This document shows, piece after piece, positions 5,536 to 30,850 of a stretch of DNA of 64,000 bases (position 1 is its first letter; every line of letters starts with the position of its first letter). Both the position numbers and the translations under genes were made by a program. A model generated the notes under the pieces. The model searched no databases. It was not told the origin of the DNA and was given only the letters and a program-made list of their open reading frames with translations. Source of the DNA: an uncultured bacterium (GTDB lineage: Bacteria; Actinomycetota; Acidimicrobiia; Spongiisociales; UBA5794); the NCBI GenBank assembly GCA_963801165.1, contig CAWDDT010000009.1, positions 1-64,000 of the forward strand, read 5' to 3'.

Positions 5536-5583
5536 CGACATCATGCGCCCGTAGCTCAATTGGATAGAGCGTCTCACTACGGA
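5536..5583 (+). repeat. 5'-half copy of tRNA-Arg(ACG) plus 9 nt of leader (att-like duplication)
   Basis: 47/48 identical to 8536-8583; ends exactly after anticodon loop CTACGGA; one change in anticodon stem (5575). Confidence 0.92.
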
Positions 5584-5735
5584 GTATCCAGCACTGAGCG
5601 CTGGGCTAACCCCCGAAGACATTGGGTCAGCGACGAGCGCAACAACCAGAATCAGACGCTGTGCCCCTCTGGGGTCCGCCACGGCAGGTGAGAGCGTCCT
5701 GCAAAGGCCCGGCCTTCTTGAGTCGTTTCCCGCAT

Positions 5736-6179
5736 TCAGGTTCCGTGAGCGATTGTTGCGGTGCGCTCGATCCTGATCAGCATCGCGGCCGATGGTGTGA
5801 CCTTGCCATTCAGGTAGGTGCTCAGTCGTGACCCGCTGGTTCCCACCAGCTGGGCAAACTCGGCGTTGGTGAGCCCGGAACGGTCGACAGCGTCCCGTAC
5901 CCGGGCCGCTACCGCGGCTCGGTCAACTCGATCGGCATGGGCTCGGGCATGTTCCACTGCCAATGCGAACAGCGTGCTGGTTGCATCGGGCTCCCGGTAC
6001 GACAGGTAACGTTCGACGCGCCGTGCGATCCGGCCCCATGGAGAGCGACGAAGCTCAGCGAATATGGGCTGCCAATCCGGGACGAGACCGCGGTCGATCA
6101 CAGCGACCAAGGCCTCATACGGCCAGGTACGGACATCGTCCGCCGGCGAGGCCTCGACGTTGCGGAATGCGACAGGCAT
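5736..6179 (-). CDS. XRE-family HTH protein, putative antitoxin/regulator
   Basis: C-terminal SGLTNAEFAQLVGTSGSRLSTYLNGKVTPS HTH; ATG overlaps stop codon of upstream NTase gene. Confidence 0.8.
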   Translation of the reverse strand: MPVAFRNVEASPADDVRTWPYEALVAVIDRGLVPDWQPIFAELRRSPWGRIARRVERYLSYREPDATSTLFALAVEHARAHADRVDRAAVAARVRDAVDRSGLTNAEFAQLVGTSGSRLSTYLNGKVTPSAAMLIRIERTATIAHGT

Positions 6180-6868
6180 CAGCCCACACCTCCGAGGCGA
6201 AGCGCAAGCATGCGGCACACATCGACAATGTCATTCCAACGGTGATAGCGTTTGTCCAGCGCCTTGTAGCGGGGCAGCTCGTCAATGACATCGGTGTCGC
6301 GTGGCTTGGGGTCGGCCAATGCGAGAACGAGCGATGTCAGTACCGACCCCCATTCTTCGGATCGGTCGTCATAGTACGAATCGATGTCGGACAGGATCGC
6401 AACCGCTGCCTCGTGTCCGATGTGGTCGGCCAAAGCAACAACGTCGAGGTAATCACGGACCACATTTCGTTGTACCACCAGGAATGCCTTGACCCGAAGC
6501 GACTCCGCCGCGGTCGGCGCAACCACCTTTGCGTCCTTGCCCACATCGACCTCGAGGGTTTCCAACGGGCGGGTCCGGCGCATCTGTCGCAAACCGGCCT
6601 CGACACCACCAAGGCGACCCATGATGGTGAACGGCGGCCTTGAAGCTCGAACGGAGGTGGCCCAGCCGTCCGCGGCCTCCACCGCTTCTAATACCACCTC
6701 GTAGCGATCAACCAGGTCGGAGAGCACGTGGTCATGATCAAACGAGTCCCGATGACCGGCGTGAAGAGCAGCAGCCGAGCCCCCGACGAGCACGGCGTCG
6801 GGCACTACCTCCTGCAACCGCGCCGCGGAGGCAAGAACCCGCTGCAACACCGGACTGAACTCTGCCAT
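6179..6868 (-). CDS. AbiEii/AbiGii-type nucleotidyltransferase, putative toxin
   Basis: LVGGSAAALHAGHRDSFDHD matches the GG..A..HR.S.D.D motif; later K...R...RDYLD motif; start at MAEFSP. Confidence 0.75.
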   Translation of the reverse strand: MAEFSPVLQRVLASAARLQEVVPDAVLVGGSAAALHAGHRDSFDHDHVLSDLVDRYEVVLEAVEAADGWATSVRASRPPFTIMGRLGGVEAGLRQMRRTRPLETLEVDVGKDAKVVAPTAAESLRVKAFLVVQRNVVRDYLDVVALADHIGHEAAVAILSDIDSYYDDRSEEWGSVLTSLVLALADPKPRDTDVIDELPRYKALDKRYHRWNDIVDVCRMLALRLGGVG

Positions 6869-7246
6869 GTCCTGATCATATCCGATAAGCCTAGGTGAAT
6901 CAACGCCGGTTTGTGCGTGGCGAGTCCACGGATCGGTCTCCGACCTGGGGCGGGTGTGTTCCGGTCGGCTGCTGTTCGGACAAGGAGACGGCACGCTGTA
7001 GAAGCGCTGTGCCTCTGGAGCGAGCAACGCGAATCAGATGCTGAATTCGCACTTACCACGGCACCGACAGCTTCACCTTCATCGCTACCGACGGGGGTGG
7101 CGGACTCCAACACGGCGACCGCGACGATTACGGTGCTCGAGACGCGGAAGTCCGCAGCATCAATCGAGGTCTTGGTCGCCTCGTTGAAGTTTACGAGGAT
7201 CGTCACCCGCCCGAAGTCGTCGATGAGAGGTTAGACCTCGTCTCGG

Positions 7247-7954
7247 TCACACGTCCGCTGCTGGAGTCGAGTCGCCGGACCGCCGTGCCCGACGAGATCG
7301 TGCCCTCTCTGCCCAATCCCGCCAGGAGCCGGGGACGTCGGGGATGGCGAGTATCCGTGCGATCAGGTCATCTCCCGGTCGAGGGAGTGCTTCTCCGAGA
7401 TCGGTGACGGTGAGACCGTGCCCGGGACGGGCGAAGACCTCGATCGTGTCACCCGCCGCCACTGTGCCTTCCTCGACGATTCGGAGATAGGCGCCGTATC
7501 GCCGCGCCTGCTCAAACCTGTCGACAAAGGCGGCGTCGCCCATGCGGATTCCGAGCTTGTAGCACGGCATCCGGGGTTCGGTGACCTGAAGCACGGTGGT
7601 CCCGATCCGCCATCGCTCACCGATGACTGCACGGGTGAGATCGATGCCCGACACCGTCAGGTTCTCCCCAAACGTCCCTGGGTCGATGCCCGTACCCAAC
7701 TGTTGTGACCACCAGTCGTAGTCGCGGGTTGAGTAGGCGTAGATAGCTTTGTCCGGGCCGCCGTGGACCCTGCGGTCGGCCTGGTCGTCGCCATCGAGAT
7801 TGACGCCGGTTGCCGGGATACGGCCCGATACAGGATGCTTCCATATGGCGGTTTCCACCACACGCCCGGCCCAGTCGATGGTCTGCCGACCGCCCACATT
7901 GACCGATTCGATCCGGCCGCTGCTCTGTGAGGTGTCGATTCGGTCGCTGGTCAT
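7247..7954 (-). CDS. MOSC domain protein (YiiM-like)
   Basis: GDDQADRRVHGGPDKA, FGENLT, PRMPCYKL motifs. Confidence 0.93.
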   Translation of the reverse strand: MTSDRIDTSQSSGRIESVNVGGRQTIDWAGRVVETAIWKHPVSGRIPATGVNLDGDDQADRRVHGGPDKAIYAYSTRDYDWWSQQLGTGIDPGTFGENLTVSGIDLTRAVIGERWRIGTTVLQVTEPRMPCYKLGIRMGDAAFVDRFEQARRYGAYLRIVEEGTVAAGDTIEVFARPGHGLTVTDLGEALPRPGDDLIARILAIPDVPGSWRDWAERARSRRARRSGDSTPAADV

Positions 7955-8167
7955 CAGAGATCGTCAACACCCTGTTGCGGTGCGGTATTCCAGCCTGCCG
8001 GCGTTGGCCCGAGGACTCCAGGGCATGGTTGAGGGTCGTCGACCGCTTTCGCCGGGGGCTGCAAGAGCCGAGACACTCGCCTTTAGCTGATGACGGCGCG
8101 ACGAGCCTCTCACCAGATCTAACGCGGTCGCTTGGTTCCGCTCGAGGTGAGCGCTGAGCTGGCGTCA

Positions 8168-8310
8168 TCAGTGCTGGCGCCTGCCGTCGGTCCGGTAGAG
8201 ATTGCGAGCCCCGATGGCGACAGCCTGATGGAGATAACCACGGTGGTTCACCACGGCCCCCCAGCCTGGCGATCGGAGAGCCCGAAGCACCGCCGATGAG
8301 ACATCTACCC
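8168..8310 (-). pseudogene. Probable ECF sigma factor region-2 remnant
   Basis: DVSSAVLRALRSPGWGAVVNHRGYLHQAVAIGARNLYR resembles ECF region 2; no intact gene. Confidence 0.4.
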
Positions 8311-8544
8311 GTGCTCGGTGAACTGTTGTGGCTGTTAGCTGCGGCATCGAGTTCACGGAGTCAGACGCTGTATGAGCGCTGTGTTACACCGGTGGATGGG
8401 AGCCCTCCTTGGGTAGAAGCTCCGGGAAACGTTGACGGAGTGCCGTTTGGAGCGACCACTGCCGGATACAGCGCCTGATTCGAACTAGAATGCTCATTGT
8501 CGGCTTGGGTTCTCCAGAAACCCTTGCAATACTTACGACATCAT

Positions 8545-8618
<74 letters not shown>

Positions 8619-8623
8619 CTAGC

Positions 8624-8651
8624 GAAACCCCTGTGTCTTGCAGGGGGTTTC
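8624..8651 (+). terminator. Hairpin after tRNA (terminator-like, repeated after the main 3'-half copies)
   Basis: GAAACCCCTG..CAGGGGGTTTC followed by T-rich tract; homologous hairpins at 15327-15353 and ~18454-18481. Confidence 0.7.
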
Positions 8652-8817
8652 TGTTTGCCAGGATTTGGCTGGCGCTGCGACTCGGAGGACGTTTGGGAGC
8701 CATTCTCGGGAGCCATTCGACGGCAAACGCGCTCACCGCTGCCACCGGAGACTCTCGACGATGAGCCTCGGATCGCGTGGCAGGTCCCGTGGCAAACCCG
8801 GGGCTCCACCGCCGTAC

Positions 8818-9292
8818 TTAGGTCTCGGTAGGGGTGTCCGCTGTCGGCAAGAGGCGTACCGACCAAGCTCGCAAGCCCTCGTAGGCAAAACCGATGACAG
8901 CTTCAACTCGAGCGTTCTCATATCGCCCGCGGTATCGCCCCCGCTCGAGCGGGGACAAAGAAGGCGTCCAATCCAGCCTTCTCCAGCCGCAGTGTGCCAG
9001 CCTGGGGAGACCCGATCGACGCAATCCGTGCCGGAACCCACCTGAGGACTCTCGGCACATCGCTAGGTTGGTTGCGGTCCCAGTGAGGCAGATCGGTGTA
9101 GTGGACAATTGCTGCTAGTCCGTTGTCGTGACCGAGCCACTCGTAACTGAATTTTCGGTTTGAGAAGTCCGCTGCTCGCTCCCTGCACCGCTCTATCTTC
9201 CGACTCGCCTCCCGCCAAGCCGACTCCCTACCTGAGAACACCTGGAGCACCGCGATGATGTAGTCGTAATAGAGAGAATCGCGTGTCTGCAC
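8818..9292 (-). pseudogene. C-terminal remnant of a large STAND/TPR protein with SAMD9-like terminal OB-fold
   Basis: Two joined frames: ...SYEWLG...SPQAGTLRL...LDAFFVP then VEAVIGFAYEGLRAWSVR; N-terminal part absent. Confidence 0.5.
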
Positions 9293-9332
9293 CGTGGCGC
9301 GTTTCGTTGGCCTAGGCCGAACCGCTGGGCTG

Positions 9333-11082
9333 CTAGCGCGTTGAAGCGGATACGAGCAATCCCGTCAGCTTCGTTGACAGGGTGACGCTGCGCCTCTCGA
9401 ACCACTCAAGGAAGCCCGAAACCTCATCAGGCAACGGCGCGAGATCGTGCGTGTTCAGCCAGTGCTCCCGGCTGGATTCATTCAGATGCTCTCGCGCCCA
9501 TTGTGCTGGCATCATCTGGCCCTTCTCCTGATTCTGAATACCGTTCAAGAGCTGCAGGTTCGGGAGCGAGTCAACACATGCCCGGACGCGGCGATCTGGT
9601 CCTCCTCCAAGCCTGCGTTGCGGAGATTCGAGACACGCAGCTTCGCTCGTGGGAATACGTGATCAATGTGGAATTGCTGATTGACGGGTGTTCCGGGATA
9701 CAGAAGCGACAGGAGGAAGAAGGCCTTCGCGCTGCAGTGCTTGGTATCGAGCAACTCAGTCACCTCGTCTTGGCTGAACACGAGCGATTTGCGATTGCGC
9801 TGCAATTCGCTTTCTAGCTCGGCAAGCGGAAATCCTGTCTCGCTGGCGCTGTTGATAGAGTCTCGACTTGTCAGCAGAATGGAATCGACGGCCCCTGTCC
9901 ATATGCCGCCGCGGAGAAGTGAGCGGATTACCCACGATCTGATCTTGGCTCGGTCGGCAGCTTCGTGACTTGATGAAAGGTATCGATCATCCAGCTGGCG
10001 GCTCTTCAGGTAGTACGCGATTGGTAGCAGGACGTTCTCGGCCGTGATGGTCTTCTCGGAGAATCCGAGTTCAGCCAAGAGCTGAGTGGCAAGGAGGAGG
10101 TACTTCGAGACCTCGCCCCAGGCTCTCTCGATGATGCGCATGTTTGCCTGGTTGAAGTTGCGAGCCTTGAACTTGATGTCCGCCAAGTCCGCGAGAATCA
10201 AGGCTCCCTTTGAGGACCAGATCCTTGGAGAAGTTGAATCCCTGTCCAACTCCATTCATGCGGTCGACAAGTCCGTGAACTTCCTCTCGCACGTCGAGGC
10301 TCTCCCACCGTGATGTCGCGACGCTGAGGAGCAAATCCGAGTAGGAGAGGACTGTGCCGCCGGAGTTGGTGCGGATGAAAATATTCAATACCTTGTCAAG
10401 GTCATTCGAGGCCTCGAGGTAGTAGCTAATGGGCTGCTCTCGATGGATTACTTCATAGAGGCGGTCGAGAGTGTTGTACGAGATGTCGTCATCGGTTCGG
10501 TCTACGGATCGGACATAGGAGAAGATATCCCGATGGCCGTCGAAATCCAGGATTCTCCCCTACTCGGAACCAGTGCTGCCCCTGATCGTTAGCGTGACTC
10601 GACTTCGTTGTCGGTCAAGAACTCGAAGTAGTACTCGAGCTCCTGGCCCGGATCGTAGTTCAGTCGCGTTATGTCAAGATGCAAGCGCTTCTTGGGGTAT
10701 GCAGCGGGATTGTCGCGGCCACATCCGAGGTAGCTTCGCGGCGTACGTACCCTGAGCGCGATATTGAGGGCAGTGAGTCGTTGTTGACCATCGAGAACCG
10801 CACTGATTGGTCTCCCACCTGTGATATTCGCAGCGGGATTGTGCGGTTGCCTCTCGTGGTAGTCGGTCACGAAGTCGTAAGAACGCGTAATCGGCAACAT
10901 TCCGAGGCTCAACCTTCCAGAAGAGGAACGACCAGATTGGATAGCCGCGCATCAAGCTGTCGAACAGCTTCGTGATCTGATCGGGCTCCCATACGAACTC
11001 CCGTTGGATTGCCGGCAGAACGTACTCGCGTTGGTGAATACCAGCCAGTAGCTCCTGATCGTGAGTGGAGTCTGAATGGCAT
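9333..11082 (-). pseudogene. DUF262-DUF1524 (GmrSD/SspE-like) restriction protein, multiply frameshifted
   Basis: LPAIQREFVW, LDGQQRLT, IFIRTNSGG, HIDHVFP and NLQLL..N..K motifs spread over several frames. Confidence 0.85.
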
Positions 11083-11333
11083 TCTGGTGCTCCCACCTGA
11101 TTGGCTACGCCGACCTTACTTGCTGTGCCAACTCGGTACTGCTCATCCACGGACGTAGTGGAACCGACCACCGGCGGCCGGTGCACCAGCTGAATCAGAG
11201 TGATTGTGAATTGCGAACTGACGGTTTCCGATCAAAGGCTCGGCGTATTCGCCAAGGTCAGCTATCGGTGCTTGGTAGTGTGTATTGCGAGTGGCTCGCC
11301 CCTCGATGATCTGTGCCGGGAGGGCTTCCGAGC

Positions 11334-13539
11334 CTAGAGCGGGCACTGCACCTCGTGAGCAATTGGGAGAAAGCTCGTCATCAGCCTGGAGTACTCGGCA
11401 TAGAACATATCCCAGTCTGCGTCCTCGTAGTCCTCTGGTGCAATCTGGATGTTGCGGCTCAACATTTGTGCGCAGAGCGCATCGCTCACAATCTCTGCGA
11501 GCAAGAGACGGAAGTGCGTCGAGTCTTGGCCGGGGAATCCCTTGGATTTGTCGCCAAGGTACCTAGCAAGGGATTGATGTCGTGCGGCTATCTCGAGGAC
11601 GTTCTGGCGCCAGCGGAAGCGCTGGTTTCCCAAGTCGATGTCTTCGAGTTTGATCTTGATACCGAGCCGGCCGGCGGTACGGATACGATCTCCGCGGAGG
11701 CCTGGAGTCCGTCAACGGTTGCAGTGAGCAAGGCACGCGCCTCAGTCTCGCCCGCTTTCACAAAGACGTCGCAAATCGCGATCCCGAGATCGCGATGCGG
11801 TTCCAGCATCGGCTCTCCAGAGACGCGCAGGTGTCGTCCACCGCCGGTGAGATCCAGTTCTACCTTCGTGGGGATTGGGGCGAGGCCGATTGGCGCCAGA
11901 AGCCGTAGCTTCTTTCGTTTGGAACCGGTGTGAAGCTGGTAGCGCTTTCGCTGGAACCTAAGCGAGGTGATGTTCTTGTATCGGTCCGCTTCCGACTCGA
12001 GCACTTCGACCGTCGCCTCAGTCGTAATGGGTCCAACACGCGCTTGTATGCCGGTTGCCAGCGACGGCGCCTCCGCCGTGACCTTCCAGGTGGCTCGCAG
12101 TATCCCGTCTCGTCCGGGGTGGTGCTCTAGAGCTGCGTATCGTTTGCTGGCGAGGATAGCGTCGTCGTGGCACTCCACTTGCACGATGTCGCCAAGCTCG
12201 AGCTCCGGGAAAGTCTTCTGGCTCACATTGAGACCCATCCTGATTGAGTGGCTAATCAGGATCTGGCTGAACGGCGGGCTCAGCTGGTAGCCACGCCTGA
12301 CCATTTCGCTTGTCGCAGAGGTTGAGGAGACGTCCCGAGCCTCGTCGTCGCTGAACTTCTCCATGAAATTGAGAGCGGCCTTCTCCAGTCGGTCAAGTCG
12401 CTGGCACGTCCGCGGTTCTCTATTGCTGCCTGTTCGTGTTCTGCTTGTTTGCGCTCTTCCTCGACGAGTGGACGCAGCCGCTTCAGCACTTCACCTGTCA
12501 GAGCCTTGACGAACGGGTGATCACGCGTTAGGCCCGATCTGCGCGAAGGATCAATGATAGGTCGAGGGTTCTCGGGTTTCGGAGGAAGCCCTTGGTCGAA
12601 TTGCTCATCGAACTCGTCTGACAAGTCGTCGATGTACTCACAGACCAACCGTCCATAGAACCAACGTGCGTGTAAGTCGCTCTCGAGGCCGGGATCGAAG
12701 AGAGTCGATTCATGGATGGCATGGCGGGACTTGACGAGGATGCCGCCTTGGCGGAACCGACTCTGGTCCTTCTCGAAGCGTTCGTGAGCGCGTCTGATCG
12801 TGAGTTTCGCATGAGCCTCTGGATATCCCGGCACTTGGAGTTGAACCTTGACGCGGTCGGTGCCGTGTACCGCCGGAGTTGACAGGGTCTCGGTCCGCCC
12901 ACTGTTGGCATCGCGAAGAGTGATCGTTCTCATCGGGTCGGACAGAATGTCGCGTAGACTCACCAGTCGCTCCAGCTTCTCCCTGAGGTTGTCGTGATGC
13001 GGGATGGACTCGTTCTGATCGACCTCAAGGGTCACCAGCGTTCCAGTTCCTCGTGGAATCCCAAGCTCCTTTCGAAGCGCCCGGCTCGAGGGTTGCGACT
13101 CGTAGAGCGTGAACTCCATGAACGGGGAGATCTCGCAGGAGTGGAACATTCCGTCGCCAGCGATTGACCTGAACGTGACCCGACCGAGGCTGGCGACATC
13201 CTTCGCGCCGCGAGCGTTCGTTCCGCGTACCGCCTTCCCTTCATGGAGCCCGCTGACTCGTCCGCCCATGTGCGACAGCTTCTCCTCCATGACGAGGCTC
13301 GTCATCCCATCGGCGAAATCTCGAACGGAGAAGAGACTTGGCTGACCCCGCCGGCGCTCAATCTCGATTTCAATGGTTCCCTCACCACCAAGGAGCTGAT
13401 ACCGATCGTCAGCATTCGTAACTAGCTCTGTTGTCACGTCGAAGATGTCGCGGATTGCCAGCTTGGCATTCTGGATCAGCGTTCGACGCCCAGCCTGCAC
13501 GTCCTTCTTCTTGACTGCCCCGTTCGATGTCACATTCAC
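11334..13539 (-). CDS. GHKL (HATPase_c/MORC-like) ATPase, ~730 aa after repairing two frameshifts (~12410, ~11660)
   Basis: ELVTNADD, VRDFADGM, RGTNARGAKD, GTGTLV Bergerat-fold motifs; ORFs 12280-13539, 11588-12364 and 11334-11633 join into one protein. Confidence 0.75.
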
Positions 13540-14180
13540 CCCTGTCCCTCATACGACAACTCGAGCCTGGCCACAAACCTGGTGAATTCGTCGTCTTCCG
13601 ATGCGGCGGCTACCAGCCGTAGCTTCTCGAACCTGCGGTCCCAGATGCTTGGGTCAGCGTCAACGCGGCACCTCAAGAGCTCAGCTAGCTGACCGATTGG
13701 TGCGCGGAACTCGTCCGGGTCACTCCGGAACACGCGATAGAGGCTGTGCTCACGGATGCGACGCATCTCCTTGCGTGCAGCCTGCCTATGGTCTTTCTGT
13801 TTGCCTGACTCGACCAGTTCTTGAAATACGGAATCATGCTCCCTCAGGTAATGCACACCGGCCTCAGTCAGTACCCATCCGTCGGGCGCCCGATCGCGTC
13901 TGGTCTTTGCACTCTGACCTTTTCGTGTCCCTGCACGACCGTCGACAAGCGCGCCAAACGCCTCCTTGCGCGCGTCAGTCAGTGCAACTCGGACGATGTC
14001 CTTGTCGGGGATCTCGGGATACTTGACCGAAGAGAAGGACCCAGGGAAGAGCTCGTGGCACTTGAGCGCGATGTCTTCGGTGTGCACTTTGTCGGTCGTC
14101 CCGCCGCACATGGCTAGAGCGAACACCACAAGTTCCCTGTTCGCGAAGCTGGAGTGGTCTCTCGCGACATGTTTCGGCAT
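13536..14180 (-). CDS. Uncharacterised protein with probable N-terminal winged helix
   Basis: 214 aa; VHTEDIALKCHELFPGSF..YPEIPD and GWVLTEAG wing-like motif; start and stop overlap both neighbours. Confidence 0.65.
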   Translation of the reverse strand: MPKHVARDHSSFANRELVVFALAMCGGTTDKVHTEDIALKCHELFPGSFSSVKYPEIPDKDIVRVALTDARKEAFGALVDGRAGTRKGQSAKTRRDRAPDGWVLTEAGVHYLREHDSVFQELVESGKQKDHRQAARKEMRRIREHSLYRVFRSDPDEFRAPIGQLAELLRCRVDADPSIWDRRFEKLRLVAAASEDDEFTRFVARLELSYEGQG

Positions 14181-21528: not shown

Positions 21529-21830
21529 ATAATCTCTCACCGGGTTCGACGGCGTCTGGGTACCTGTTTGGCTGGCAACGAATGCGGCCATCGCTCCCGA
21601 GGAGCGATGCAAGTGCACCGATGGTGATGCCGGCCATCCGCGTCATGCGCACCAGAATGGCCGACTTATTGAGCTTCGGCAGATCGCCGGCGCCGGAGAC
21701 GTTGGAAACACCCGCCGCACGGGGCTCGAACAGCGACCCGTTAACCCCCGCCGGGTTGACCGTCCGCGACGCGATTACCGGGACCCGACTGGGCCCCGGT
21801 AATCAGATGATTGCTTGATACGCGCGGCTC

Positions 21831-22085
21831 TCAGGAATCGGTGTCTATGGAGCCGGCCTCGTGGACGCGATCGATCAGTTTGTCGATTTTGGCGGAAATG
21901 GTGTCGATTGATTCTCCGGCCTTCTCGCGGATCGTGCCTACCAGGCGATCCCATTGGCCTTCGGCGCGATCAATGTCGTCGTCGGTGAGTGCCCCCCACG
22001 CTTCCTTGAGGCGGCCCCGCATCTCCTGGACCGATGCCTCGAATTTCATCTCTCTCGTATCAGTGTCAGTTGTATTGGTGTTCAT
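21831..22085 (-). CDS. CsbD-family stress protein
   Basis: GRLKEAWGALTDDDIDRAEGQWDRLVGTIREKAGE; AGGAGG RBS. Confidence 0.9.
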   Translation of the reverse strand: MNTNTTDTDTREMKFEASVQEMRGRLKEAWGALTDDDIDRAEGQWDRLVGTIREKAGESIDTISAKIDKLIDRVHEAGSIDTDS

Positions 22086-22539
22086 GTGTTGGTTCCTCCT
22101 AGATGATGATGTGATGTTCTTGCTTGCCGTTGTCAGGCAAGCCGGTTCGGTCAGCAAGACCAGCCGACGTCATCGCCTTTCGACTGGTGAGTGGCTTTGC
22201 GGTGGTCGGTGATGATCCCGTCGTACACTCCGGTTGGAGGCTGCCGGGATCTCCTCGACGGTCGTCCGACTGGTTGGGTAGTCGTCCCACGACCGGTGCC
22301 GCACCTTCCATCTGCTGTCTTGCCGGTTACCTACCCACTCGCCCGCGTTCTGAAACGCGCCATCTGTAAGAGTGGGCTGAGTAGCTAGCCGACGCGGCCG
22401 ATGAGCTCAAGCGTGTCGGAAGCCGACGATCGGCACGGAGTCGCCTTCAAGCACCACACGGATGGCGTCATCGACATTGCACGGTGCCTCGCCAGTGGTG
22501 CCTTTGTCGGCGGTTGCGTTGTCAGCAGTTGCCCGGGCC

Positions 22540-22704
22540 TCAACCCTCGTATCCCGCAGCGCGTGCCGCCCGACCCTGGCGTTTCGCCTTCTCCTTGGCG
22601 GCCTCGCGGCTCTGCTTGTTGCCGGCCTCATAGTGGTACTTCTTCCCACTGTCGCCCCACTGGTAGTAGGGCCCTGTACCGTCCTTGCTCCGATGTACCG
22701 GCAT
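22540..22704 (-). CDS. Small basic protein (54 aa)
   Basis: MPVHRSKDGTGPYYQWGDSGKKYHYEAGNKQSREAAKEKAKRQGRAARAAGYEG; GGAGGA RBS. Confidence 0.7.
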   Translation of the reverse strand: MPVHRSKDGTGPYYQWGDSGKKYHYEAGNKQSREAAKEKAKRQGRAARAAGYEG

Positions 22705-23182
22705 ACGTGATCCTCCGTCTCCAGGCTTCGTTGAGCACCAAGTCCTGGCTGAGATAGGTACCCACCGCCGCAGGATACGAAACACGATGCGGTGTGCCGA
22801 CGGCTGCTTTCGGCCGTCGGGTGGACTGCGCAGGCAAGTCGGCGGGGCTGCATATTCTGAGCGGTGCAGGCCGCAGTGTGATCTCAGCGGAGCGAAGTGC
22901 CGCCGGTTCGCTCCGTCTTGGCCCTCTACCCGGTCGCGCCGCTGTCGCCAGTTGGAAGCAAGGCGGCCTCGGTCCTCTACTCGGGCCGCCGCCCTCGAGG
23001 GCCCGGGTGTGCTCGGAGATCCTGCAGACCTCTTCTCATGTTTGACAGATAACGCTTCGACGCCTCGCAGCGGTGACAGCCAGAACGCACCATGAGAATT
23101 CCGGCGGCCCGCAGTACCCGAAAGTATCATCACCGGCGCACGCCAGCCGCCGGCCAAGACACCGCCCGAACCTGAGGTCGCG

Positions 23183-26100
23183 ATGCCAAACGAACTCACC
23201 CGACGAGGCTTCCTAAGTCTCCTCGCCGCGGCGGGGGTGGGTGTGCTTGCCGGATGCACCAGCGACCCGGACTCGGCGACGACCACCACCCTGCCCGTTG
23301 TCACGACCGGCGGCGGAGATGGCGACCTGTGGAGCGTATGGGATCAGGTCCGTACTGCACTCCGCGGAAGTCCCGATCACCTGGCGGCCCGAGCCGAGGC
23401 CCTCGTTGCTGAGGGAGATGCCGCCGCGATCCACCAGTTCGTTCGCGACTCGATTGCGACACTCCCACCCCGGGCCGACGGCTTTCATCAGGCGGTGACA
23501 GCGATTCGGTGGGGAATGCAGGGCACACTGCGCGGCGGAGCGGGGACGCCGCGGGAGAAGGCAGAACTGCTCGCGTCGATGCTGCAGAGAGCCGGCTACG
23601 ACGCAAAGGTGGTCATGGCCTCGTTCGAACCGGCCGCCCTGTTGGAGACGCTCGGGCCACGAGAGGCCGCCCGATTTGACCCCGCGGTCGACGAGGCCCA
23701 GCTGGATCGATGGCTGGAAACGATCGGCGCCACCCCGGCAGACATCGCCGCTTTTGACCCCGACGGTGCATCTTCGACGCAACTCGGCGAGGGGCTGCTC
23801 GGGAACCTCGAAGGCACCGTCGGCGCCGATCCGGCCTTCGTCGTCGCGACGGATCAAGTCCCTCTCGTGAGCGCCCAGGTGAACGGGCAGGAGCTGGTAT
23901 TCGACCCCCTGACGCCGGGGGCGGAGCCCGTCGCGGCCTCCGCAACGGCGACCCTGCCTGCCCCTCCCGCCTCTCCCTTGCCGACAGTTGAGGTCGAACT
24001 GGCGGTCACCAGCACGGTGCAGCCGTTTGGCAAGATCACAGTGGCCCAAGGTTCGTGGCCGGTGGACCGGCTCGTGGGAAGGCGCCTGGTCGCCCGGTTC
24101 ATGCCCGCCGGCTCCCTCGAAGATAGCCTGCAGGTCCCGCCGCTCCAGATCACCACCTTCGTGCCGGTGCTGGCAATCGACGGGCCCGATGTCTCCGCCG
24201 AGGACGCGGCGTCGGACGCCGTGATCGGCGACCCGGTAACGGTCACAGGTTCGGTGCTGACCACTGACCCGGCGGGCACTCTCCTGATCGACGGCACCCC
24301 GGTGGGCATCGCCACCACCGGCACGCCCGACCCCGGGATGCTCGACCTGGCCATCAACCCTTCCGCGTTCCCCCATGTGAGGCTGCAGCTGAGGGTGGCA
24401 GACGCGGCCGGCACCCCGATTCTGGGCGCTTCCGGAGCCAGCCTCACCGTGATGGAGGACGATGTGCCGGTCCCCTTCCTCGTCCGTGAGGCGACGCCAC
24501 CGCCTCCCCGCGTGCTGGTTCTCTTCGACGGGTCGCTCAGCATCCCGGAGGAGTTCCGGGGGAGTGCCGCGGTCGGGTTCGCCCGCGAGCTGGCAACGGA
24601 CCTGTTTCAGGCGTTCCCCGATGCGATGGTTCGGGTCGCCGGGGTGAACTTCGGCTTGGCGTCGGCATCGCCATCGTGGATGGCCGATGTGGACAGCGTC
24701 GCCGCGGAAGTCGTGAGGTTGATCACCGATGGATCCGAGTACTGGTCGGCCATTGCAGACGCCGCCGCCCTCGGCGCCAACGTGATCGTGCTCGTCACCG
24801 ATGGCCAGTCGACCGATCCGGAGGATCGCGCCGCCGAGGCGCAGCTGAAGGCCGCGGTCGGGCCTCCGGTCGTCGCCATCGGGGTCGGCGAAGTCGATGT
24901 CGCCGGGCTCGAGGAGATCGCCGCGGTGACTTCGGGGAGCGCACATCAGGCCGGATCGGTCGCCGATGTCGTCGAATCCGTCTCCGGGTACCTGACCGGG
25001 CGGGAGGAGGCTCCGCTGCACGTTGAGTACCAGGCGCTGCCCGACGGGCCGTCGCCGCGGACGGTGACAGTGGCGATGGGGAGCATGGAAGCGAGCGGGG
25101 AGTACGAGGTCCCCGACCCGCATGAAGCGGCACCTCCGCCGTCGCTGACCGGGCTGCATCTGATCGTCCGATCGGGCGGAGCAGAAACCGTGAGGACCCT
25201 CGCCGGCAAGCCCCTCATCGGTGCGGGAGTGCAGGAACCACCGTCTCAGGATGTTCTCCAGGAGGTCCGGGCGGGTCTGTTCGGGGTAGCGCTCCTCTCG
25301 GTGGAGGGCCCCGCTCCCACACTCTCCGCCTGGCTCGACGACGTGTTCACCGCCAGGCTCAGCCTTCGCCCCCTGGTCGAGGCGGGCAGCTCGCTCGGAG
25401 ACTTCGTGGCCGCCCTGGAGGAGGGAGTGCACCACTGTCCTTCCGAGCTACTCGCTCTGCACGCCCCGCTGGTTGCCGACGGTCCGCCGACCTTCGAGGT
25501 GGCACCGAGGATGGTCCTGCTGACCCGACGGCCGACCTATGCCGGAGGGGCGGTGCGGCGCACCGACATCCTCCCCTTCACCAAATTCGCTACCGCCTCG
25601 ACCGATCCGGCCGAAGCGTTCCGGCTGACGGCTCAGCGCACCGCGAGGTTGGCGCTGGTCGAGAGTGACATTTTCACCGACAGCACGGCGAGCCGTCTCG
25701 ACGGCCGACCTCTGGAGTTGCTGGCTCCCGCCGTCCCCGGCTCGCGGGAGGGCGCCTATGCACTCCAGGCCGCCCTCCTCGACCGTTGGGCTGCCGACTA
25801 CCGGCTCATCCCGGGCGACGAAGGGGAGTTCGCCTTCTGGGCGATCGACAAGCGGGGCTCAGTCCTCGGGATCCTCCCCGACGGCAGCGGCGGGGGAGCG
25901 TCCTTCGACGGCAACGCCCAATGCAAGGCGATGAACCAGACTTTCAGCGCACTCGATCTGCTCGGCGGGCTGTTCGGGCTCCCGTTTGCGTTCGGGGCGT
26001 TTCTCGCCCTCGGGAAAGCCATCGCCAAGCAGGCCTACCGTGAGGCGGCCATCATCGCTTCGCTGGGGGGCGACATGCCGGACACGTCACAGTGCGGAGA

Positions 26101-26230
26101 CCCCGTCAAGGACGTTCCCTGCGACCTGGCGAAGGACTTGATTTCAGGTCTCGCTCATCCCCTCGAGGCCGCCTCGAAGGTCGAGAAGGTCTACGGCGTC
26201 GCCCAGGGTGGAGACCTCCTGGACTGCTGA
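23183..26230 (+). CDS. Tat-exported lipoprotein with transglutaminase-like and vWA domains
   Basis: TRRGFL Tat motif, LAGC lipobox, GTPREKAELLASMLQRAG, MIDAS DGSLS and LVTDG. Confidence 0.8.
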   Translation: MPNELTRRGFLSLLAAAGVGVLAGCTSDPDSATTTTLPVVTTGGGDGDLWSVWDQVRTALRGSPDHLAARAEALVAEGDAAAIHQFVRDSIATLPPRADGFHQAVTAIRWGMQGTLRGGAGTPREKAELLASMLQRAGYDAKVVMASFEPAALLETLGPREAARFDPAVDEAQLDRWLETIGATPADIAAFDPDGASSTQLGEGLLGNLEGTVGADPAFVVATDQVPLVSAQVNGQELVFDPLTPGAEPVAASATATLPAPPASPLPTVEVELAVTSTVQPFGKITVAQGSWPVDRLVGRRLVARFMPAGSLEDSLQVPPLQITTFVPVLAIDGPDVSAEDAASDAVIGDPVTVTGSVLTTDPAGTLLIDGTPVGIATTGTPDPGMLDLAINPSAFPHVRLQLRVADAAGTPILGASGASLTVMEDDVPVPFLVREATPPPPRVLVLFDGSLSIPEEFRGSAAVGFARELATDLFQAFPDAMVRVAGVNFGLASASPSWMADVDSVAAEVVRLITDGSEYWSAIADAAALGANVIVLVTDGQSTDPEDRAAEAQLKAAVGPPVVAIGVGEVDVAGLEEIAAVTSGSAHQAGSVADVVESVSGYLTGREEAPLHVEYQALPDGPSPRTVTVAMGSMEASGEYEVPDPHEAAPPPSLTGLHLIVRSGGAETVRTLAGKPLIGAGVQEPPSQDVLQEVRAGLFGVALLSVEGPAPTLSAWLDDVFTARLSLRPLVEAGSSLGDFVAALEEGVHHCPSELLALHAPLVADGPPTFEVAPRMVLLTRRPTYAGGAVRRTDILPFTKFATASTDPAEAFRLTAQRTARLALVESDIFTDSTASRLDGRPLELLAPAVPGSREGAYALQAALLDRWAADYRLIPGDEGEFAFWAIDKRGSVLGILPDGSGGGASFDGNAQCKAMNQTFSALDLLGGLFGLPFAFGAFLALGKAIAKQAYREAAIIASLGGDMPDTSQCGDPVKDVPCDLAKDLISGLAHPLEAASKVEKVYGVAQGGDLLDC

Positions 26231-26253
26231 GACTCCGAGCCTGCGCAGGGGTC

Positions 26254-26283
26254 TTGACAGACCAAACCTGAGTTAGGTATACA
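26254..26283 (+). promoter_or_regulatory. Sigma70-type promoter of hsp20
   Basis: TTGACA-N18-TATACA upstream of hsp20. Confidence 0.5.
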
Positions 26284-26375
26284 TAGATTATCTGAAGTTC
26301 ACTCTTTGGGGGTGATGTGGATCGCAAACTCGTGATGTCAATGAAAGGAGTCAGTGACAAACGGAGTGAGTGACG

Positions 26376-26804
26376 ATGTTGCGTTTCATGGATCCGTTTG
26401 AGGAGACCGATAGGAGTATGTCTTCCCTTGGCGGCCGTTGGCGTGGCGGGATCATGCCAATCGACGCCTTCGAGCACGATGGCGTATACACGTTGCGGTT
26501 CGACCTGCCCGGTGTGAACCCGGATGACGTCGACCTGACGGTAGAAGGCAACATGTTGACTGTGACGGCGGAGCGCCCGGCGGAGAAGACCGAGGACGTG
26601 GCGTGGCTGGTGCGGAAGCGCCCGGCGGGTACCCACCGCCGTGACGTGCGGTTGGGCGACCGTCTCGCCACCAGCGAGGTCAGCGCCGGCCATGACAGTG
26701 GCGTGTTGACGGTGACGATCCCGACGCGTGACGAGGCCAAGCCACACAAGGTCTCCATTGCTTCGGGCACCGCGGAGAGGCTCACTGCTGGAGCTACCGC
26801 CTGA
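26376..26804 (+). CDS. Hsp20/alpha-crystallin small heat-shock protein
   Basis: MLRFMDPF, FDLPGV, LTVTAER, GVLTVTIP motifs. Confidence 0.95.
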   Translation: MLRFMDPFEETDRSMSSLGGRWRGGIMPIDAFEHDGVYTLRFDLPGVNPDDVDLTVEGNMLTVTAERPAEKTEDVAWLVRKRPAGTHRRDVRLGDRLATSEVSAGHDSGVLTVTIPTRDEAKPHKVSIASGTAERLTAGATA

Positions 26805-26883
26805 CCGGACGAGCCCAGATCGCATTTCCCCGGGCCCTTCCGGCTCTCGTGTCGGAAGGGCCTGCGAAAGGAGTGAATGGCCG

Positions 26884-27351
26884 ATGGCGACTGATGACGA
26901 CCCGTCTGTCCACCAAGCAGCCTTCGTAGCGAGTCGCATAGACCGCGACCGGACACTACAGGCAATTCACCGTTTTGAGACCGCACTGGCAATGGCGGCC
27001 GAGGGAGCCAACTGGCTTTCGGAAGTCACAACGGACCTCGAGGCGCTGGAGGCGGCGATGACCGAAGAGCGGCGCGAGCTGAACCGCCCAGACTCACTTT
27101 TGGCGATGATCGCCGCTGAGCATCCGCGCCGGTTCAGCTCCCGAGTCCGCAACCTGGAAGAGCAGTACGACGACATCATCCGCCAATCGGCGTCACTCCG
27201 AGATCAGCTCGCTCGCGGCGAGGGCTCCCCGCCCGACGCCGGTGACCTTCGTCAACGCGCCAGTTGGCTCATCCGTGCCCTCCATCACTGCCGTGCCCGC
27301 CAAACCGACATCGTGTACGAAGCCATCGCCATGGACCTCGGGGAGCGCTGA
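26884..27351 (+). CDS. Hypothetical helical protein (hemerythrin-like fold possible)
   Basis: 155 aa helical ORF; AAGGAG RBS; ends YEAIAMDLGER. Confidence 0.65.
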   Translation: MATDDDPSVHQAAFVASRIDRDRTLQAIHRFETALAMAAEGANWLSEVTTDLEALEAAMTEERRELNRPDSLLAMIAAEHPRRFSSRVRNLEEQYDDIIRQSASLRDQLARGEGSPPDAGDLRQRASWLIRALHHCRARQTDIVYEAIAMDLGER

Positions 27352-27515
27352 TTGGATGTGCCCGCGGACGCCCAGCCGCAGGTCCTCGTGCCGGCACAGT
27401 CGGTGTGTCGAGAGGGGGTGACTCGCCGGGATGGCCGACAGCGATCGTACGTGAGCTTGTTCAACTCGTGAAGATCAATGTGCGGCGCTAGCTGCCATTG
27501 CCGGTCGAACGCCGG

Positions 27516-28169
27516 TTACGAGGTTCGCTCCTCGCCGCAGGTCGCTTCGAACGTGCCGGTCGCGGTCTCGACCTCATCGGTGAAGAGACTGTTCTGTCTG
27601 AAGAACGTTGCCGTGCCGCGCACCGTCCGGCCATCGATCTCCATAGTATCGACCTGACTCATCCCCGGTTGCAGCGCGTCAAAATTCTCGAACATCGGGC
27701 TGGCTTCATCGGCAACCCAGTCTTCGTCACCGATGCCAACGTCGATCGAGTTGACCTCTCCGACCACATCGGGGTCCGTTCCTTCGTGCAATGCGACAAT
27801 GCTCACGCTGCCCTTCGCTTTTGCCCCGCCCTCGTCGATCATCGGCAACTGAATCGAGAAGATACCGAACAGATTGGTGAGGCATTGCGCTACAACGGCA
27901 CCTTCGGTAGAGAAGTTGTAGGTCTCGCCCTCGAGAGTCACGGTTGCCGTCGATGGACCGGAACCTTCGGAGTCGTCTGCACTGCCGGTCGTCGTGGGAG
28001 GCGCCGTTGTCTCCTCGGTGCCGACGCCCGCCGACGACGCTTCCGTGGTTACTGCCGCAGTCGTGCCGGGTTCGTCCGAGGTGCCGTCGGCTCCTGTGTC
28101 AGCGGAATCTCCGCCGCATGCCGCCACCGCGAGAAGGATGGCAACGACCAATACATTCAAACGTCTCAC
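27516..28169 (-). CDS. Lipoprotein
   Basis: VAAC lipobox followed by Thr/Ser-rich linker. Confidence 0.8.
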   Translation of the reverse strand: MRRLNVLVVAILLAVAACGGDSADTGADGTSDEPGTTAAVTTEASSAGVGTEETTAPPTTTGSADDSEGSGPSTATVTLEGETYNFSTEGAVVAQCLTNLFGIFSIQLPMIDEGGAKAKGSVSIVALHEGTDPDVVGEVNSIDVGIGDEDWVADEASPMFENFDALQPGMSQVDTMEIDGRTVRGTATFFRQNSLFTDEVETATGTFEATCGEERTS

Positions 28170-28601
28170 TTGCTACTCCCTCCGCCACGGAAAGCCCCCG
28201 CCCCCGCAGCAATTGCAACCGACCATACAGGAGGGCTCTCTCACTTGGGACGGCAAACTCCCAATCGCCACAGCTCCTGGCCGAACGGCCGTCGCGGATC
28301 GGCTCAGCGTCGAGTGCCGCGAGAGACCATCGAGGGCCTCCACACCAGTTCGAGACCAAGCTCGAACTCGTTACGCCTGGTCGCAAGTGTGTCCACCGGT
28401 GACCGCGTGGGTACATCTATCGGTGTCACCCTGTTGCGGGTCGGAACGTCCGCCGGAACGCCTCCGATGTTGTGTCCGTAGCTCTGCGTGTCGTCACGTG
28501 CTCAGGTCAGATGGGAATCGTGCCGGCGACATTCTCTGGCACCGCTGTGCCGATTGCGCCTATATGGTTGGATCGTTGCGGGATCTGTCGAGGGAGGGAC
28601 C

Positions 28602-30797
28602 ATGGGGAGCCTGACGACGACGCGGAGACGGGTGGCGGCCTGGTTCGTCGCGCTGTTGGCGCTCTCGGCTTGCACGAGCAGCGGCCCGACGGGTGCGGGC
28701 TCTGATGACGGAGCGACGACGGTGGTACCGGGGGGCGCTGGGACCACCGCGATGCTGGTTGGCGCCGAGGAGCAGCCGCTCCCCGACCTCGCGGATCTCA
28801 GCCTCGTCGACAACCTCATCGCCAAGGAGGCAGATGGCGAATGGACCCGGGGAGAGGGGCTCGTTGCGACACTGGGAATGGTGGTCGGGGACGTCGACGT
28901 CTCCGCGGTGCTCCGGTATCCCGAACTCGTCGAACCGGAGCTGACCGGGATCGTTGCCATGGCGCGTGACTACCTCGAGGATGATTCCAACACCGAAGCG
29001 CGGTCCGACATCGCCCGTCTCCTCGAGCGGCTCGTGTTCTCCGGCGAGCAGCTGGACGCGATGGCCGGCAATGGTCCGCAGGCCCTGGCGGCGGTCCCCG
29101 GTTCGGTGCTTGCCGCCGCGGCGTTCCAAAACTCCGACGAGGATTGCCAGAAGTTCTTTGCTACGACGACCCCGGCCGGTGTGAGCACGTGTCTGGAGGA
29201 GAGAGATGTCTTTGTCCTCGACGTCGCCGGGGAGGGACCGTACCGGGTCTATGTCCCCGCGCCGGAGATGGACGCGGCCGGGTGGACCGAGGACCACTAC
29301 CAGCTGGCGGTGGATGCGCTACTCGAAACGGTGCCGGTGTACACCGAGCTGCCGGCGGGCGAGGACTTCGCCATGCCGCCGGTCAACCTCGTCTTTTCCG
29401 TAGCCGGTGGCGGCGGGGCCTCGGCGATGGCAGACCCGGTTGCGGGTGGGGAGTGTGGCATCGTCCTGTTTACGGAGCTGTTGAAGCCGAAGTACACCGC
29501 CGGCGACTTCAAGCAGGTGGTGGCCCACGAGCTCGGCCACTGTTACCAGACCGAGCGGTTCCCTGCGCAGGATTCGGTCCGTTACGAGGACATCCGCTGG
29601 CGCGAGGAGGGAATGGCCAACCTGCTCTCGAACATCGTTTATCCCGCCAATGATCTCGAGTGGGATCCGGGGACGATGAGCAAGCTGGCGCAACACGAGC
29701 TCGAGACATCCCTGTTCGATCGGGCCTACACAAACTCGATCTTCTTTCAGCACCTCCTGTCGACCGGTTCGATCGAATCGTTGTTCGATCTGGTCGCCAG
29801 CTTGCCCACGGACGACGGTATGCAGCTCCAGAAGGACGCGATGGCCGGTTACCCGGGCATGATCGAGAAGCATCACGAGTACGCCCAGACGGTCACCGAC
29901 GAGATGATCGTCGACAGCAGCCAGGAGTTCGGCGACTACGCCATGACGGATGACAATTTCCCCGAAGTCGAGGTCACCAACCCGGGCACCGTACTCGTCG
30001 CCAATCTCGTGCCGTTCCAGCTCGCCCGCCGCCATGTTGTCGTGCCCCCCGGCAAGCAAGCATGTCTCACCTGGGACGACTCGAACTTCATCGTCACCAA
30101 GCGGGACCATCCCATCGGGCCGAACCAGCCGGAGTGGAGCCCGCTTCTAACGATGCTGCCGCCGGTCTTGGAGGAGTCGGGTGACGTGGCGCTCGTGGTC
30201 ACGGCACGGAACCCTGGGACGTTCTCACTCGTTGCGGAGTCCGTTCACGATCTCAACGAGGAAACCGACGGGGAGCTCGTCGGCACGTGGGTCGTCCAGA
30301 ACACCAGCCTCTGGGACAAGGTCGGCTACATCGCCCCGGTGCAGAACCTCAACTCGATCACCGGCCGGATCACCGTGACTTTCAAGAGGGACGGCACCGT
30401 GGACATCGCCTACGACGGTTTCAGCGTGTCTGGTGACAGCACGGTGAACCTCGCTGAGGGCGCGTTCTCGTCCGACTTTTCGAGGACATACTCGTCTGTG
30501 ACTGATGCCGAGGGCAGCGACGGGTACGAGCTGACCGGTGACTACGTCTTCTACGACCACCTTTCGGAGAGCGATTTCCTGACAGGCACCGCAACTGTGT
30601 CGGAGACCTCCCGCGGGGTGTTCCTCGGGGTCAAGACCGAGAACATTGAGCTCGACACAAAGCTCCCGGACAGCACGGTCGATACCTATCCGGCGAACGG
30701 TTGGGGGGTCATCGGCGCCGCCAATCAGGTGCGATTCGCCTGCGGCGGCCACATCCTCCTCCTTGACGACACCATCCTGCGCCGCGTGGACTCTTGA
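28602..30797 (+). CDS. Lipoprotein with gluzincin-type zinc metallopeptidase motif
   Basis: LSAC lipobox; VVAHELGHCYQ then WREEGMA (HExxH...E). Confidence 0.78.
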   Translation: MGSLTTTRRRVAAWFVALLALSACTSSGPTGAGSDDGATTVVPGGAGTTAMLVGAEEQPLPDLADLSLVDNLIAKEADGEWTRGEGLVATLGMVVGDVDVSAVLRYPELVEPELTGIVAMARDYLEDDSNTEARSDIARLLERLVFSGEQLDAMAGNGPQALAAVPGSVLAAAAFQNSDEDCQKFFATTTPAGVSTCLEERDVFVLDVAGEGPYRVYVPAPEMDAAGWTEDHYQLAVDALLETVPVYTELPAGEDFAMPPVNLVFSVAGGGGASAMADPVAGGECGIVLFTELLKPKYTAGDFKQVVAHELGHCYQTERFPAQDSVRYEDIRWREEGMANLLSNIVYPANDLEWDPGTMSKLAQHELETSLFDRAYTNSIFFQHLLSTGSIESLFDLVASLPTDDGMQLQKDAMAGYPGMIEKHHEYAQTVTDEMIVDSSQEFGDYAMTDDNFPEVEVTNPGTVLVANLVPFQLARRHVVVPPGKQACLTWDDSNFIVTKRDHPIGPNQPEWSPLLTMLPPVLEESGDVALVVTARNPGTFSLVAESVHDLNEETDGELVGTWVVQNTSLWDKVGYIAPVQNLNSITGRITVTFKRDGTVDIAYDGFSVSGDSTVNLAEGAFSSDFSRTYSSVTDAEGSDGYELTGDYVFYDHLSESDFLTGTATVSETSRGVFLGVKTENIELDTKLPDSTVDTYPANGWGVIGAANQVRFACGGHILLLDDTILRRVDS

Positions 30798-30812
30798 GCG
30801 AGAGGTTGACCT

Positions 30813-30850
30813 CCACGGCAGAAGGATGGGGCCGTTCGGACAGCGACAGG
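30813..30850 (+). repeat. Highly degenerate tRNA 3'-half/palindrome remnant
   Basis: CCACGGCAGAAGGATGGGGCCGTTCGGACAGCGACAGG vs CTACGGATCAGAAGGATGGGGCCTGTCGCAGGCGACAGG. Confidence 0.6.

Follow-up and report, generated by a model that had tools for sequence, protein, structure and literature searches.

The window analysed here, a 64,000-nucleotide stretch (G000:C9:1-64000; contig CAWDDT010000009.1) of a 4.55-Mb, 13-contig metagenome-assembled genome (MAG) of a soil member of the Acidimicrobiia with 5.6% contamination, carries an array of gene units arranged in tandem beside an intact tRNA-Arg(ACG) gene (Table 1). ARAGORN and Rfam agree on this as the sole tRNA in the searched stretch, and Rfam found nothing else. 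A first-pass annotation, made from the sequence alone, had described the tRNA together with a copy of its 5' half and several copies of its 3' half, and ARAGORN, a repeat search and BLAST recovered all of them. The repeat search and genome-wide BLAST further showed that the 5'-type and 3'-type blocks of identity share exactly 7 nt, the anticodon-loop motif CTACGGA at 8577-8583, so the copies break where the first-pass annotation had placed the breakpoint. A 7-bp crossover region would be expected to leave an overlap of this kind.

The 3'-half copies at 15279 and 18391 begin with CTACGGA and delimit unit 1 (8577-15278) and unit 2 (15279-18390). The first 46 nt of the copy at 15279 are identical to 8577-8622, and more extended comparisons gave 85% identity (8577-8715 against 15279-15414) and 87% identity (15150-15299 against 18263-18411). 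The decay with distance from the tRNA that had been noted earlier is clear: the junction at 15279 is complete, that at 18391 is altered, and those at 20464, 21442 and 30819 are remnants, with a 15-nt exact match left at the last. The decayed junction at 20464-20562, which is 81% identical to 15151-15213, was absent from the earlier list of copies.

Junctions have the anatomy of lambda-type attachment sites

Two complete hybrid attachment (att) junctions lie in the window, at 15150-15415 and 18263-18535. In 5' to 3' order, the parts are two TGGGAGCCA boxes set 12 nt apart, TGTGGAC in two triplets, CTACGGA, the tRNA 3' half, a G+C-rich terminator hairpin followed by a T run, and a second pair of boxes 13 nt apart. 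The box pairs stand at -128 and +115 from the core and thus form arm-type direct repeats on both arms; a short overlap combined with arm-type repeats around 110-130 nt from the core is characteristic of lambda-type (heterobivalent) att sites. All six TGGGAGCCA boxes in the window fall within junctions, compared with 0.6 expected (0 of 100 shuffles reached six), and 10 of the 15 copies of TGTGGAC fall in three P arms at 10-nt spacing, which excludes a chance origin of these motifs.

Under the Campbell model each junction would be a hybrid in which the P arm of the preceding unit, on the left, meets the P' arm of the following one, on the right. The earlier proposal that the units keep complete att arms holds for units 1 and 2, both of which have the core and P' at the left and P and the core at the right. 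Judging by this layout, the boxes would be arm-type integrase sites, and the TGTGGAC arrays could bind an excisionase or an architectural protein.

We aligned 23 junctions from 15 genomes and found the box pair (23 of 23 P arms), CTACGGA, the GGAC cores of the phased repeats and GATCTACGGATCAGAAGG all to be invariant; similarity ended exactly at the first box, with none to the left of it. Among the 23 P' arms, 13 carried TGGGAGCC boxes, two carried TTGGTCCGC boxes and eight carried neither, indicating that elements of several arm types share the CTACGGA core. No box was present downstream of tRNA-Arg in nine relatives without an array (G005, G021, G023, G026, G033, G035, G036, G037 and G039), and the boxes are therefore element-derived.

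The 3' half at 18391 carries a hairpin of around 20 nt inserted in its T arm, and its junction has only one P' box. This variant occurs at 18406-18431, 21451-21476 and 30828-30850 in the window and elsewhere in the genus (L114 near 6790, L128 7734-7793, and two copies in L138); at the first position of an array it would make the tRNA non-functional.

The window encodes no recognizable recombinase

The absence of a tyrosine or serine recombinase from the window, noted in the first reading, was borne out by Pfam and tblastn searches. None of 40 open reading frame (ORF) translations between 417 and 35076 matched a recombinase family in Pfam, and when the whole 64 kb was searched by tblastn with 25 integrases (16 from this genome and nine from related loci), no significant match fell in the array. 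One match to an integrase N-terminal region, at 14160-14460 (E = 0.03), was rejected: the ORF there has no Pfam match at E <= 10, and its BLASTP E value is 0.32. All 21 PF00589 matches of the genome, and its single PF00239 match, lie outside the window, and hence no IntI-type integrase gene was found beside the array. No integrase-like reading frame lies beyond the window's P' boxes, and no remnant of an integrase, relaxase or transfer gene was found in its units, where integrase remnants would have pointed to ordinary decayed islands.

Arrays with different cassettes recur in related genomes

The first-pass annotation had pointed to the junction, then put at around 265 bp, as the feature to look for in relatives. 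We searched 41 genomes, this one included, with a 301-nt junction as the query and obtained matches in 32. The match included the P arm in 16 of the 40 relatives, spread over 12 of 25 genera (15 of 39 relatives if the unpublished G027 is left out), and junction identity across genomes was 75-88% over 150-260 nt. Long arrays were found in G024 (contig C2), with eight matches over 27 kb, and in G045, where the array spans 42 kb on a single 4.16-Mb contig. In the latter, ARAGORN called a second tRNA-Arg(ACG) inside the array (G045:C3, L145 13967-14039), and some junctions of that genome may keep a whole tRNA copy.

This recurrence bears on whether the repeats are artefacts of assembly or binning. 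The MAG is in 13 contigs with the contamination given above, and the last part of contig C5 is repeated, at 99% identity, in C9:1-7399. The same architecture is nevertheless present with different cargo in dozens of independent assemblies, including the single contig of G045, and the junction copies in the window have diverged (85-87% identity) instead of being identical, so that we regard an artefact as extremely improbable.

Taking units as delimited by consecutive 3' halves, and calling integrases by tblastn (E <= 1e-4, 25 queries), we obtained 43 units in 21 arrays (39 of 43 without an integrase match; median length 2.6 kb). Eight were 1.2 kb or shorter; those that we translated were toxin-antitoxin (TA) cassettes, and one was empty. 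That empty unit (G030:C16, L113 3818-4080) measures 262 nt from one core to the next, its P' arm being followed directly by P. The four integrase-bearing units, 11.5-20 kb in length, are each the first after the tRNA (G041, G042, G043 and G045).

Unit number, order and cargo all vary between relatives, whereas identical cargo and order in all of them would have spoken against the first-pass proposal. Units of around 0.7-1.0 kb in G022:C68 and G017:C35 hold one TA pair each, Phd-Doc-, HigBA- or HicAB-like from reading the translations. The Phd-Doc and HigBA units are common to both genomes over their full core-to-core length (79% and 84% identity) and stand in a different order. The HigBA cargo alone is 90% identical between these two genomes, which belong to different genera, compared with 72% for the single comparable backbone stretch. 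Within the window's own genus, the cassettes run tRNA, Fic in G008; tRNA, AlbA2-like, Fic in G011; and AlbA2-like, luciferase-like monooxygenase (LLM), Doc-ABC in G007. G011 and G008 differ by one integrase-less unit inserted at the position nearest the tRNA. This polymorphism fits insertion next to the tRNA, and to that extent agrees with the earlier suggestion that the newest units lie nearest to it. Fic or SoFic-like cargo recurs in five further arrays.

A different way to shuffle such units would be homologous exchange, with the ~260-bp junctions acting as portable homology for RecA-dependent recombination after DNA uptake and no site-specific recombinase acting now. The extent of junction similarity between genomes and the persistence of arrays in genomes without the cognate integrase would both suit this explanation. 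However, 75-88% identity with short exact runs makes a poor RecA substrate, the boundaries fall exactly at CTACGGA and the first box and are not variable, and the origin of the arms is left without account; we consider this explanation quite improbable.

Integrases associated with the boxes

The box-pair pattern occurred in 63 stretches of a species-level genome collection, 18 of which had an intact tRNA-Arg(ACG) by ARAGORN. The TGGGAGCCA box pair also follows tRNA-Thr(GGT), tRNA-Val and tRNA-Ala at L014, L042, L052, L056, L023, L060 and L075, in Streptosporangiaceae, Micrococcales and other Actinomycetota records. From this distribution, an arm specificity common to integrases with different tRNA targets appears likely.

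Integrase genes converge on the boxes at L025, L028 and L054, the first of these loci lying directly after tRNA-Arg, and the integrases of L025 and L054 end in GSQNGSQ, encoded by the box pair itself. The integrases carried by the units in G041, G042, G043 and G045 form one clade with that of L025, at 52-87% mutual identity; the domains of this L025/L050 clade are PF00589 and a SAM-like domain. The one integrase-bearing unit that we annotated, L142 (405-aa integrase), has 10 ORFs including ABC-transporter and peptidoglycan-binding genes. No replication or FtsK/TraB-type transfer genes were found among these 10 ORFs or in the window's units.

This genome also contains an apparently complete 9.7-kb element with a 391-amino-acid (aa) integrase at tRNA-Thr(TGT) (L007, G000:C4:407989-417753). 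The tRNA is followed by a hairpin and then by a TTGGTCCGC box pair within the last codons of the integrase gene (P'); a second pair comes 9.7 kb later, around 130 nt upstream of the attR core, where the 3' part of the tRNA is repeated. L007 is autonomous and shares its layout, but not its boxes, with the window junctions. Its integrase has close relatives, at 67-73% identity, beside tRNA-Arg(ACG) in G022 and G017.

An integrase encoded in trans and flanked by such boxes, as first proposed, is therefore partly supported: boxes do mark integrases elsewhere (L025 and L054), whereas this genome and 40 relatives yielded no cognate enzyme. A 48% identical relative of the L050 integrase on G008:C786 was considered and rejected as the cognate one, its contig having no neighbouring tRNA half or box pair.

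Origin and movement of the units

We think it fairly probable that the right-hand array formed by tandem accretion of trans-dependent cassettes resembling cis-mobilizable elements (CIMEs). On this reading, the anticodon loop of tRNA-Arg(ACG) would be an attB hotspot used in Acidimicrobiales by arm-binding tyrosine integrases of one lambda-type family, and each right-hand unit would be an integrated element reduced to its cargo and att arms. A unit would run from CTACGGA through a replacement tRNA 3' half, the terminator and a TGGGAGCCA pair (P') to the cargo, and from there through a box pair and the TGTGGAC triplets (P) to the next core, with successive Campbell-type insertions producing the hybrid P-O-P' junctions. 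Because the units encode no integrase, they would depend on one supplied in trans, for which the L025/L050 clade, carried in other genomes on units of 11.5-20 kb that share these arms, is the candidate supplier. We infer that the units move as integrase-less circles. At present the array in the window is probably static, with decay under way at its distal end.

The main alternative starts from the same anatomy, the same lack of integrases, the same recurrence across genomes and the same polymorphism of cassettes, all of which we observe directly. It holds that the units arrived with integrases and lost them by deletion, as in classical CIMEs, and that integrase-less units never move alone: only integrase-bearing newcomers would integrate, and the remainder would be inherited or carried in larger composites. 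Such decay is the default pathway in the published account of CIMEs (PMC5704250). Integrase-bearing units with the same arms do exist, a decaying type-B integrase fragment sits beside tRNA-Arg in G017:C12, the distal junctions of the window are visibly decaying, and no cognate integrase was found in 41 genomes. Against this alternative, no integrase remnant was found in any of the 39 integrase-less units, units of ~0.7-1 kb with both arms intact recur in changed order across genera, an empty P'-P unit exists, and the tRNA-proximal insertion that distinguishes G011 from G008 involves an integrase-less unit. We consider loss from ordinary islands unlikely as the source of the array.

Several observations weigh against the trans-dependent accretion that we favour. 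There are no TGGGAGCCA box pairs elsewhere in this genome, and the junction copies in its array are only 85-87% identical, which does not point to very recent events. None of the 41 genomes yielded an L050 integrase homologue reaching 50% identity (best 48%; 36% in this genome). In the integrase-bearing units of G041, G042, G043 and G045, 2-5 kb separate the integrase gene from the P' boxes, and its link to the arms is by containment only; G030, which is 85% complete, has just three PF00589 matches, none on the array contig. The HigBA pair is present in eight of the order's 151 genomes; in G171 and G115 it lacks flanking junctions, so the pair also occurs outside arrays, in two other families. 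Finally, among the contigs of four metagenome runs no joint, circle or empty-site contig was seen, nor any of the circle junctions anticipated in the first-pass annotation.

These four soil runs, compared as contigs, came from a run search that returned five runs with small shares of the sequence. Their near-identical contigs cover 4000-9071 and 14778-23000 and leave the interior of unit 1 (9072-14777) without cover. Contigs stopping at 8574 or starting at 15279 might suggest a form of the locus lacking unit 1; no contig bridges the gap, and we did not count them. Among viral contigs, the box-pair pattern matched one, which had neither a tRNA half nor an integrase.

A broader idea, which we put forward tentatively and regard as possible but doubtful, is that Acidimicrobiales possess a tRNA-anchored cassette platform equivalent in function to an integron but built on lambda-type machinery. 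A cassette as small as one TA or defence operon would then carry only a ~260-bp attP, and a heterobivalent integrase visiting on 11-20 kb islands would capture, stack and reshuffle cassettes beside tRNA-Arg. The platform may also extend leftward by taking up units of opposite polarity, each with a new 5' half and promoter flank.

A left-hand unit of opposite polarity

The unit to the left of the tRNA leaves a displaced 5' half at its left and brings a 5' half with around 185 nt of upstream flank, which we call U, at its right; here U stands on the element side of the unit. In G010:C131, U, the 5' half and CTACGGA are followed by a homologue of 5584-6889 at 85% identity, whereas in G010:C284 U is followed by an intact tRNA. 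The left junction of the 5584 unit is also present in G006:C103. We recognized no box arms (5584-5800 and 8321-8544 share just one 11-mer and two 9-mers), and Pfam found no recombinase in this unit. Given its opposite polarity and the lack of recognizable box arms, the left unit would represent a different kind of event from the right-hand units. Its MOSC domain, named in the first reading, was found by Pfam, and the accompanying TA label rests solely on the Xre-type helix-turn-helix (HTH) gene.

The stretch 1-7399, which contains part of this unit, matches G000:C5:658784-666192 as the 99% duplicate mentioned above, and the displaced 5' half at 5533-5583 is accordingly also found in C5, which overlaps this contig. 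The duplication is probably an unmerged contig overlap or the product of two strains in the bin, and it makes C5 the upstream neighbour of the window.

Cargo and distal limit of the array

Coordinates of the locus are collected in Table 1.

Table 1. Features of the tRNA-Arg(ACG) locus, in window coordinates
Feature	Position	Strand	Details
Displaced tRNA-Arg 5' half with 12 nt of upstream flank	5533-5583	+	CTACGGA at end; 96% identical to 8533-8583
Left unit	5584-8357		Xre-type HTH, 282-aa ORF, MOSC-domain gene; Pfam; no integrase
Xre-type HTH gene	5736-6218	-	Pfam
282-aa ORF	6179-7027	-	No assigned family
MOSC-domain gene	7247-7954	-	Pfam
Upstream flank U of intact tRNA	8358-8544	+	76-84% identical to tRNA-Arg upstream flank in G010, G006, G011, G008
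tRNA-Arg(ACG), intact	8545-8619	+	ARAGORN; Rfam RF00005, 61.8 bits
CTACGGA, anticodon loop; putative 7-bp crossover core	8577-8583	+	Invariant in 23/23 aligned junctions
P' arm, unit 1	8620-8715	+	Terminator hairpin ~8622-8659; TGGGAGCCA box pair 8693-8715
Cargo, unit 1	8716-15149	-	HEC-05/GmrSD-like defence-gene fragments; four ORFs 11588-14847
P arm, unit 1	15150-15278	+	Box pair 15150-15171; TGTGGAC at 15188/15198/15208 and 15239/15249/15259, 10-nt phase
Core, tRNA 3' half, hairpin and box pair (P' arm, unit 2)	15279-15415	+	Box pair 15392-15415
Cargo, unit 2	15416-18262	mixed	ECF sigma factor, 285-aa ORF, SoFic-type Fic protein
Extracytoplasmic function (ECF) sigma factor	15471-16010	+	Pfam
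285-aa ORF overlapping ECF gene	16007-16864	+	Putative anti-sigma, by position only
SoFic-type Fic defence protein	16982-18163	-	PADLOC SoFic, 287.6 bits, full length
Second complete junction	18263-18535	+	P arm 18263-18390; core 18391; terminator; single box 18521
Decayed junction	20464-20562	+	Degenerate box pair and first TGTGGAC cluster fused to last bases of 3' half; core deleted
LLM, start truncated	20681-21412	-	Pfam PF00296, profile positions 113-304 of 314
Remnant: hairpin-variant 3' half and terminator	21442-21527	+	No P arm or boxes; 79% identical to 18397-18480
Old remnant of hairpin-variant 3' half	30819-30854	+	30819-30833 = exact 15-mer of 18399-18413; 0/100 shuffles reach observed count

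The first-pass cargo labels of defence for unit 1, ECF/Fic for unit 2 and LLM further out were confirmed by Pfam and PADLOC; a cupin gene placed at 18.4-21.4 kb was not found there, the one present lying at 32694-33260. In unit 1, the HEC-05/GmrSD-like fragments at 9545-10255 and 10674-11186 correspond to positions 310-515 and 29-89 of the 600-position PADLOC HEC-05 profile and match Pfam GmrSD_N. This gene, split into at least two fragments over 9545-11186, is either a pseudogene or the product of assembly frameshifts. The four consecutive minus-strand ORFs beside it (258, 419, 214 and 149 aa) had no match in Pfam, PADLOC or NCBIfam and may constitute an undescribed defence operon. NCBIfam gave no match for 10 cargo ORFs. 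The LLM gene lacks the first ~112 profile positions, and its truncated start abuts the 21442 remnant; an intact LLM cassette lies between two complete junctions in G007 (L114 1768-3699). The cargo adjoining the tRNA is not common to congeners, although their junctions are 80-88% identical.

The congener G005, whose tRNA-Arg has only a remnant downstream, sets the distal limit of the array. Two blocks of the window, 27467-31829 (90-94% identity) and 40676-48026 (87%), recur in G005 downstream of its tRNA, with order and strand unchanged; the variable stretch beside the tRNA is therefore 8620-27466. By alignment, the 30819 remnant sits in an intergenic spacer that is present, diverged, in G005, and we read it as an old scar and not a current unit boundary. 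The outermost unit of possibly ~9 kb in the first-pass annotation is consequently not a discrete one, since 27467-31829 is syntenic with G005 and the remnant lies in a conserved spacer. Between the two blocks, which are adjacent in G005, the window has around 8.8 kb (31830-40675) with a TetR regulator, a cupin, an HD-GerE regulator and others. This is a second variable stretch, in which we recognized no att remnant.

Comparison with known systems

The elements pSAM2, SLP1 and mycobacteriophage L5 use a tyrosine integrase and an identity segment from the tRNA anticodon loop to the 3' end, and their integrase gene abuts attP. In this type the integrase gene converges on the tRNA, arm sites are direct repeats, and phased arm-core repeats resemble excisionase sites. 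The system described here differs in that L142 has no replication or transfer genes and most units have no integrase at all; replication genes together with FtsK/TraB-type transfer genes define actinomycete integrative and conjugative elements, and L142 and the window units have neither.

Tandem islands at ssrA and arrays at re-used sites carry their own recombinases, unlike 39 of the 43 units here. Such arrays are alike in that repeated insertion at one small-RNA gene gives tandem islands bounded by direct repeats, as outlined for genomic islands at ssrA in Dehalococcoides (PMC3146451) and for the re-use of one site by tyrosine-recombinase elements (PMC6563490).

CIMEs lack an integrase, keep attL and attR, stand in tandem with related elements and depend on the integrase of a related element (PMC5704250). 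The tandem accretion of ICESt1/ICESt3 in Streptococcus thermophilus and of the toxicogenic regions of Streptomyces likewise gives att-bounded, integrase-less units in tandem. The arrays here differ in having up to eight junction matches each (G024) and units down to ~0.7 kb that hold one TA operon or nothing. Their arm architecture is conserved in at least 12 genera, their target is a tRNA anticodon loop, and no trace of a conjugative ancestor was found.

The likeness to an integron array suggested by the first-pass annotation holds as an analogy of outcome only. Sedentary integrons are reported to carry defence cargo (bioRxiv 10.1101/2024.07.02.601686), and chromosomal integrons (IntI, attI, attC) share with these arrays small cassettes rich in TA and phage-defence genes, distal decay and an order consistent with insertion at the anchor side. 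The sites, however, are ~260-bp double-strand lambda-type attP-like junctions with direct repeats and a tRNA half, an anatomy different from that of folded attC sites; no integrase gene stands at the anchor, which is a tRNA gene, and several arm types occur in one array.

If the units do move as integrase-less circles, they would represent a second, mechanistically independent route to arrays of TA and anti-phage cassettes, in a poorly studied but abundant class of soil and aquatic actinobacteria; should they prove to be no more than decayed islands, the locus would remain a clear example, across the order, of tandem accretion at one tRNA. In either event the ~260-bp junction is a searchable marker for mining accessory and defence genes in Acidimicrobiia metagenomes, and the pairs of boxes and integrases could yield new site-specific recombination tools. 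A literature search, with supplementary files outside its scope, found no published description of this system in Acidimicrobiia. What goes beyond the published examples found is its regularity and reach, the cassette-sized units with intact arms, the empty unit, the shuffled order and the persistence of arrays in genomes that lack the cognate integrase.

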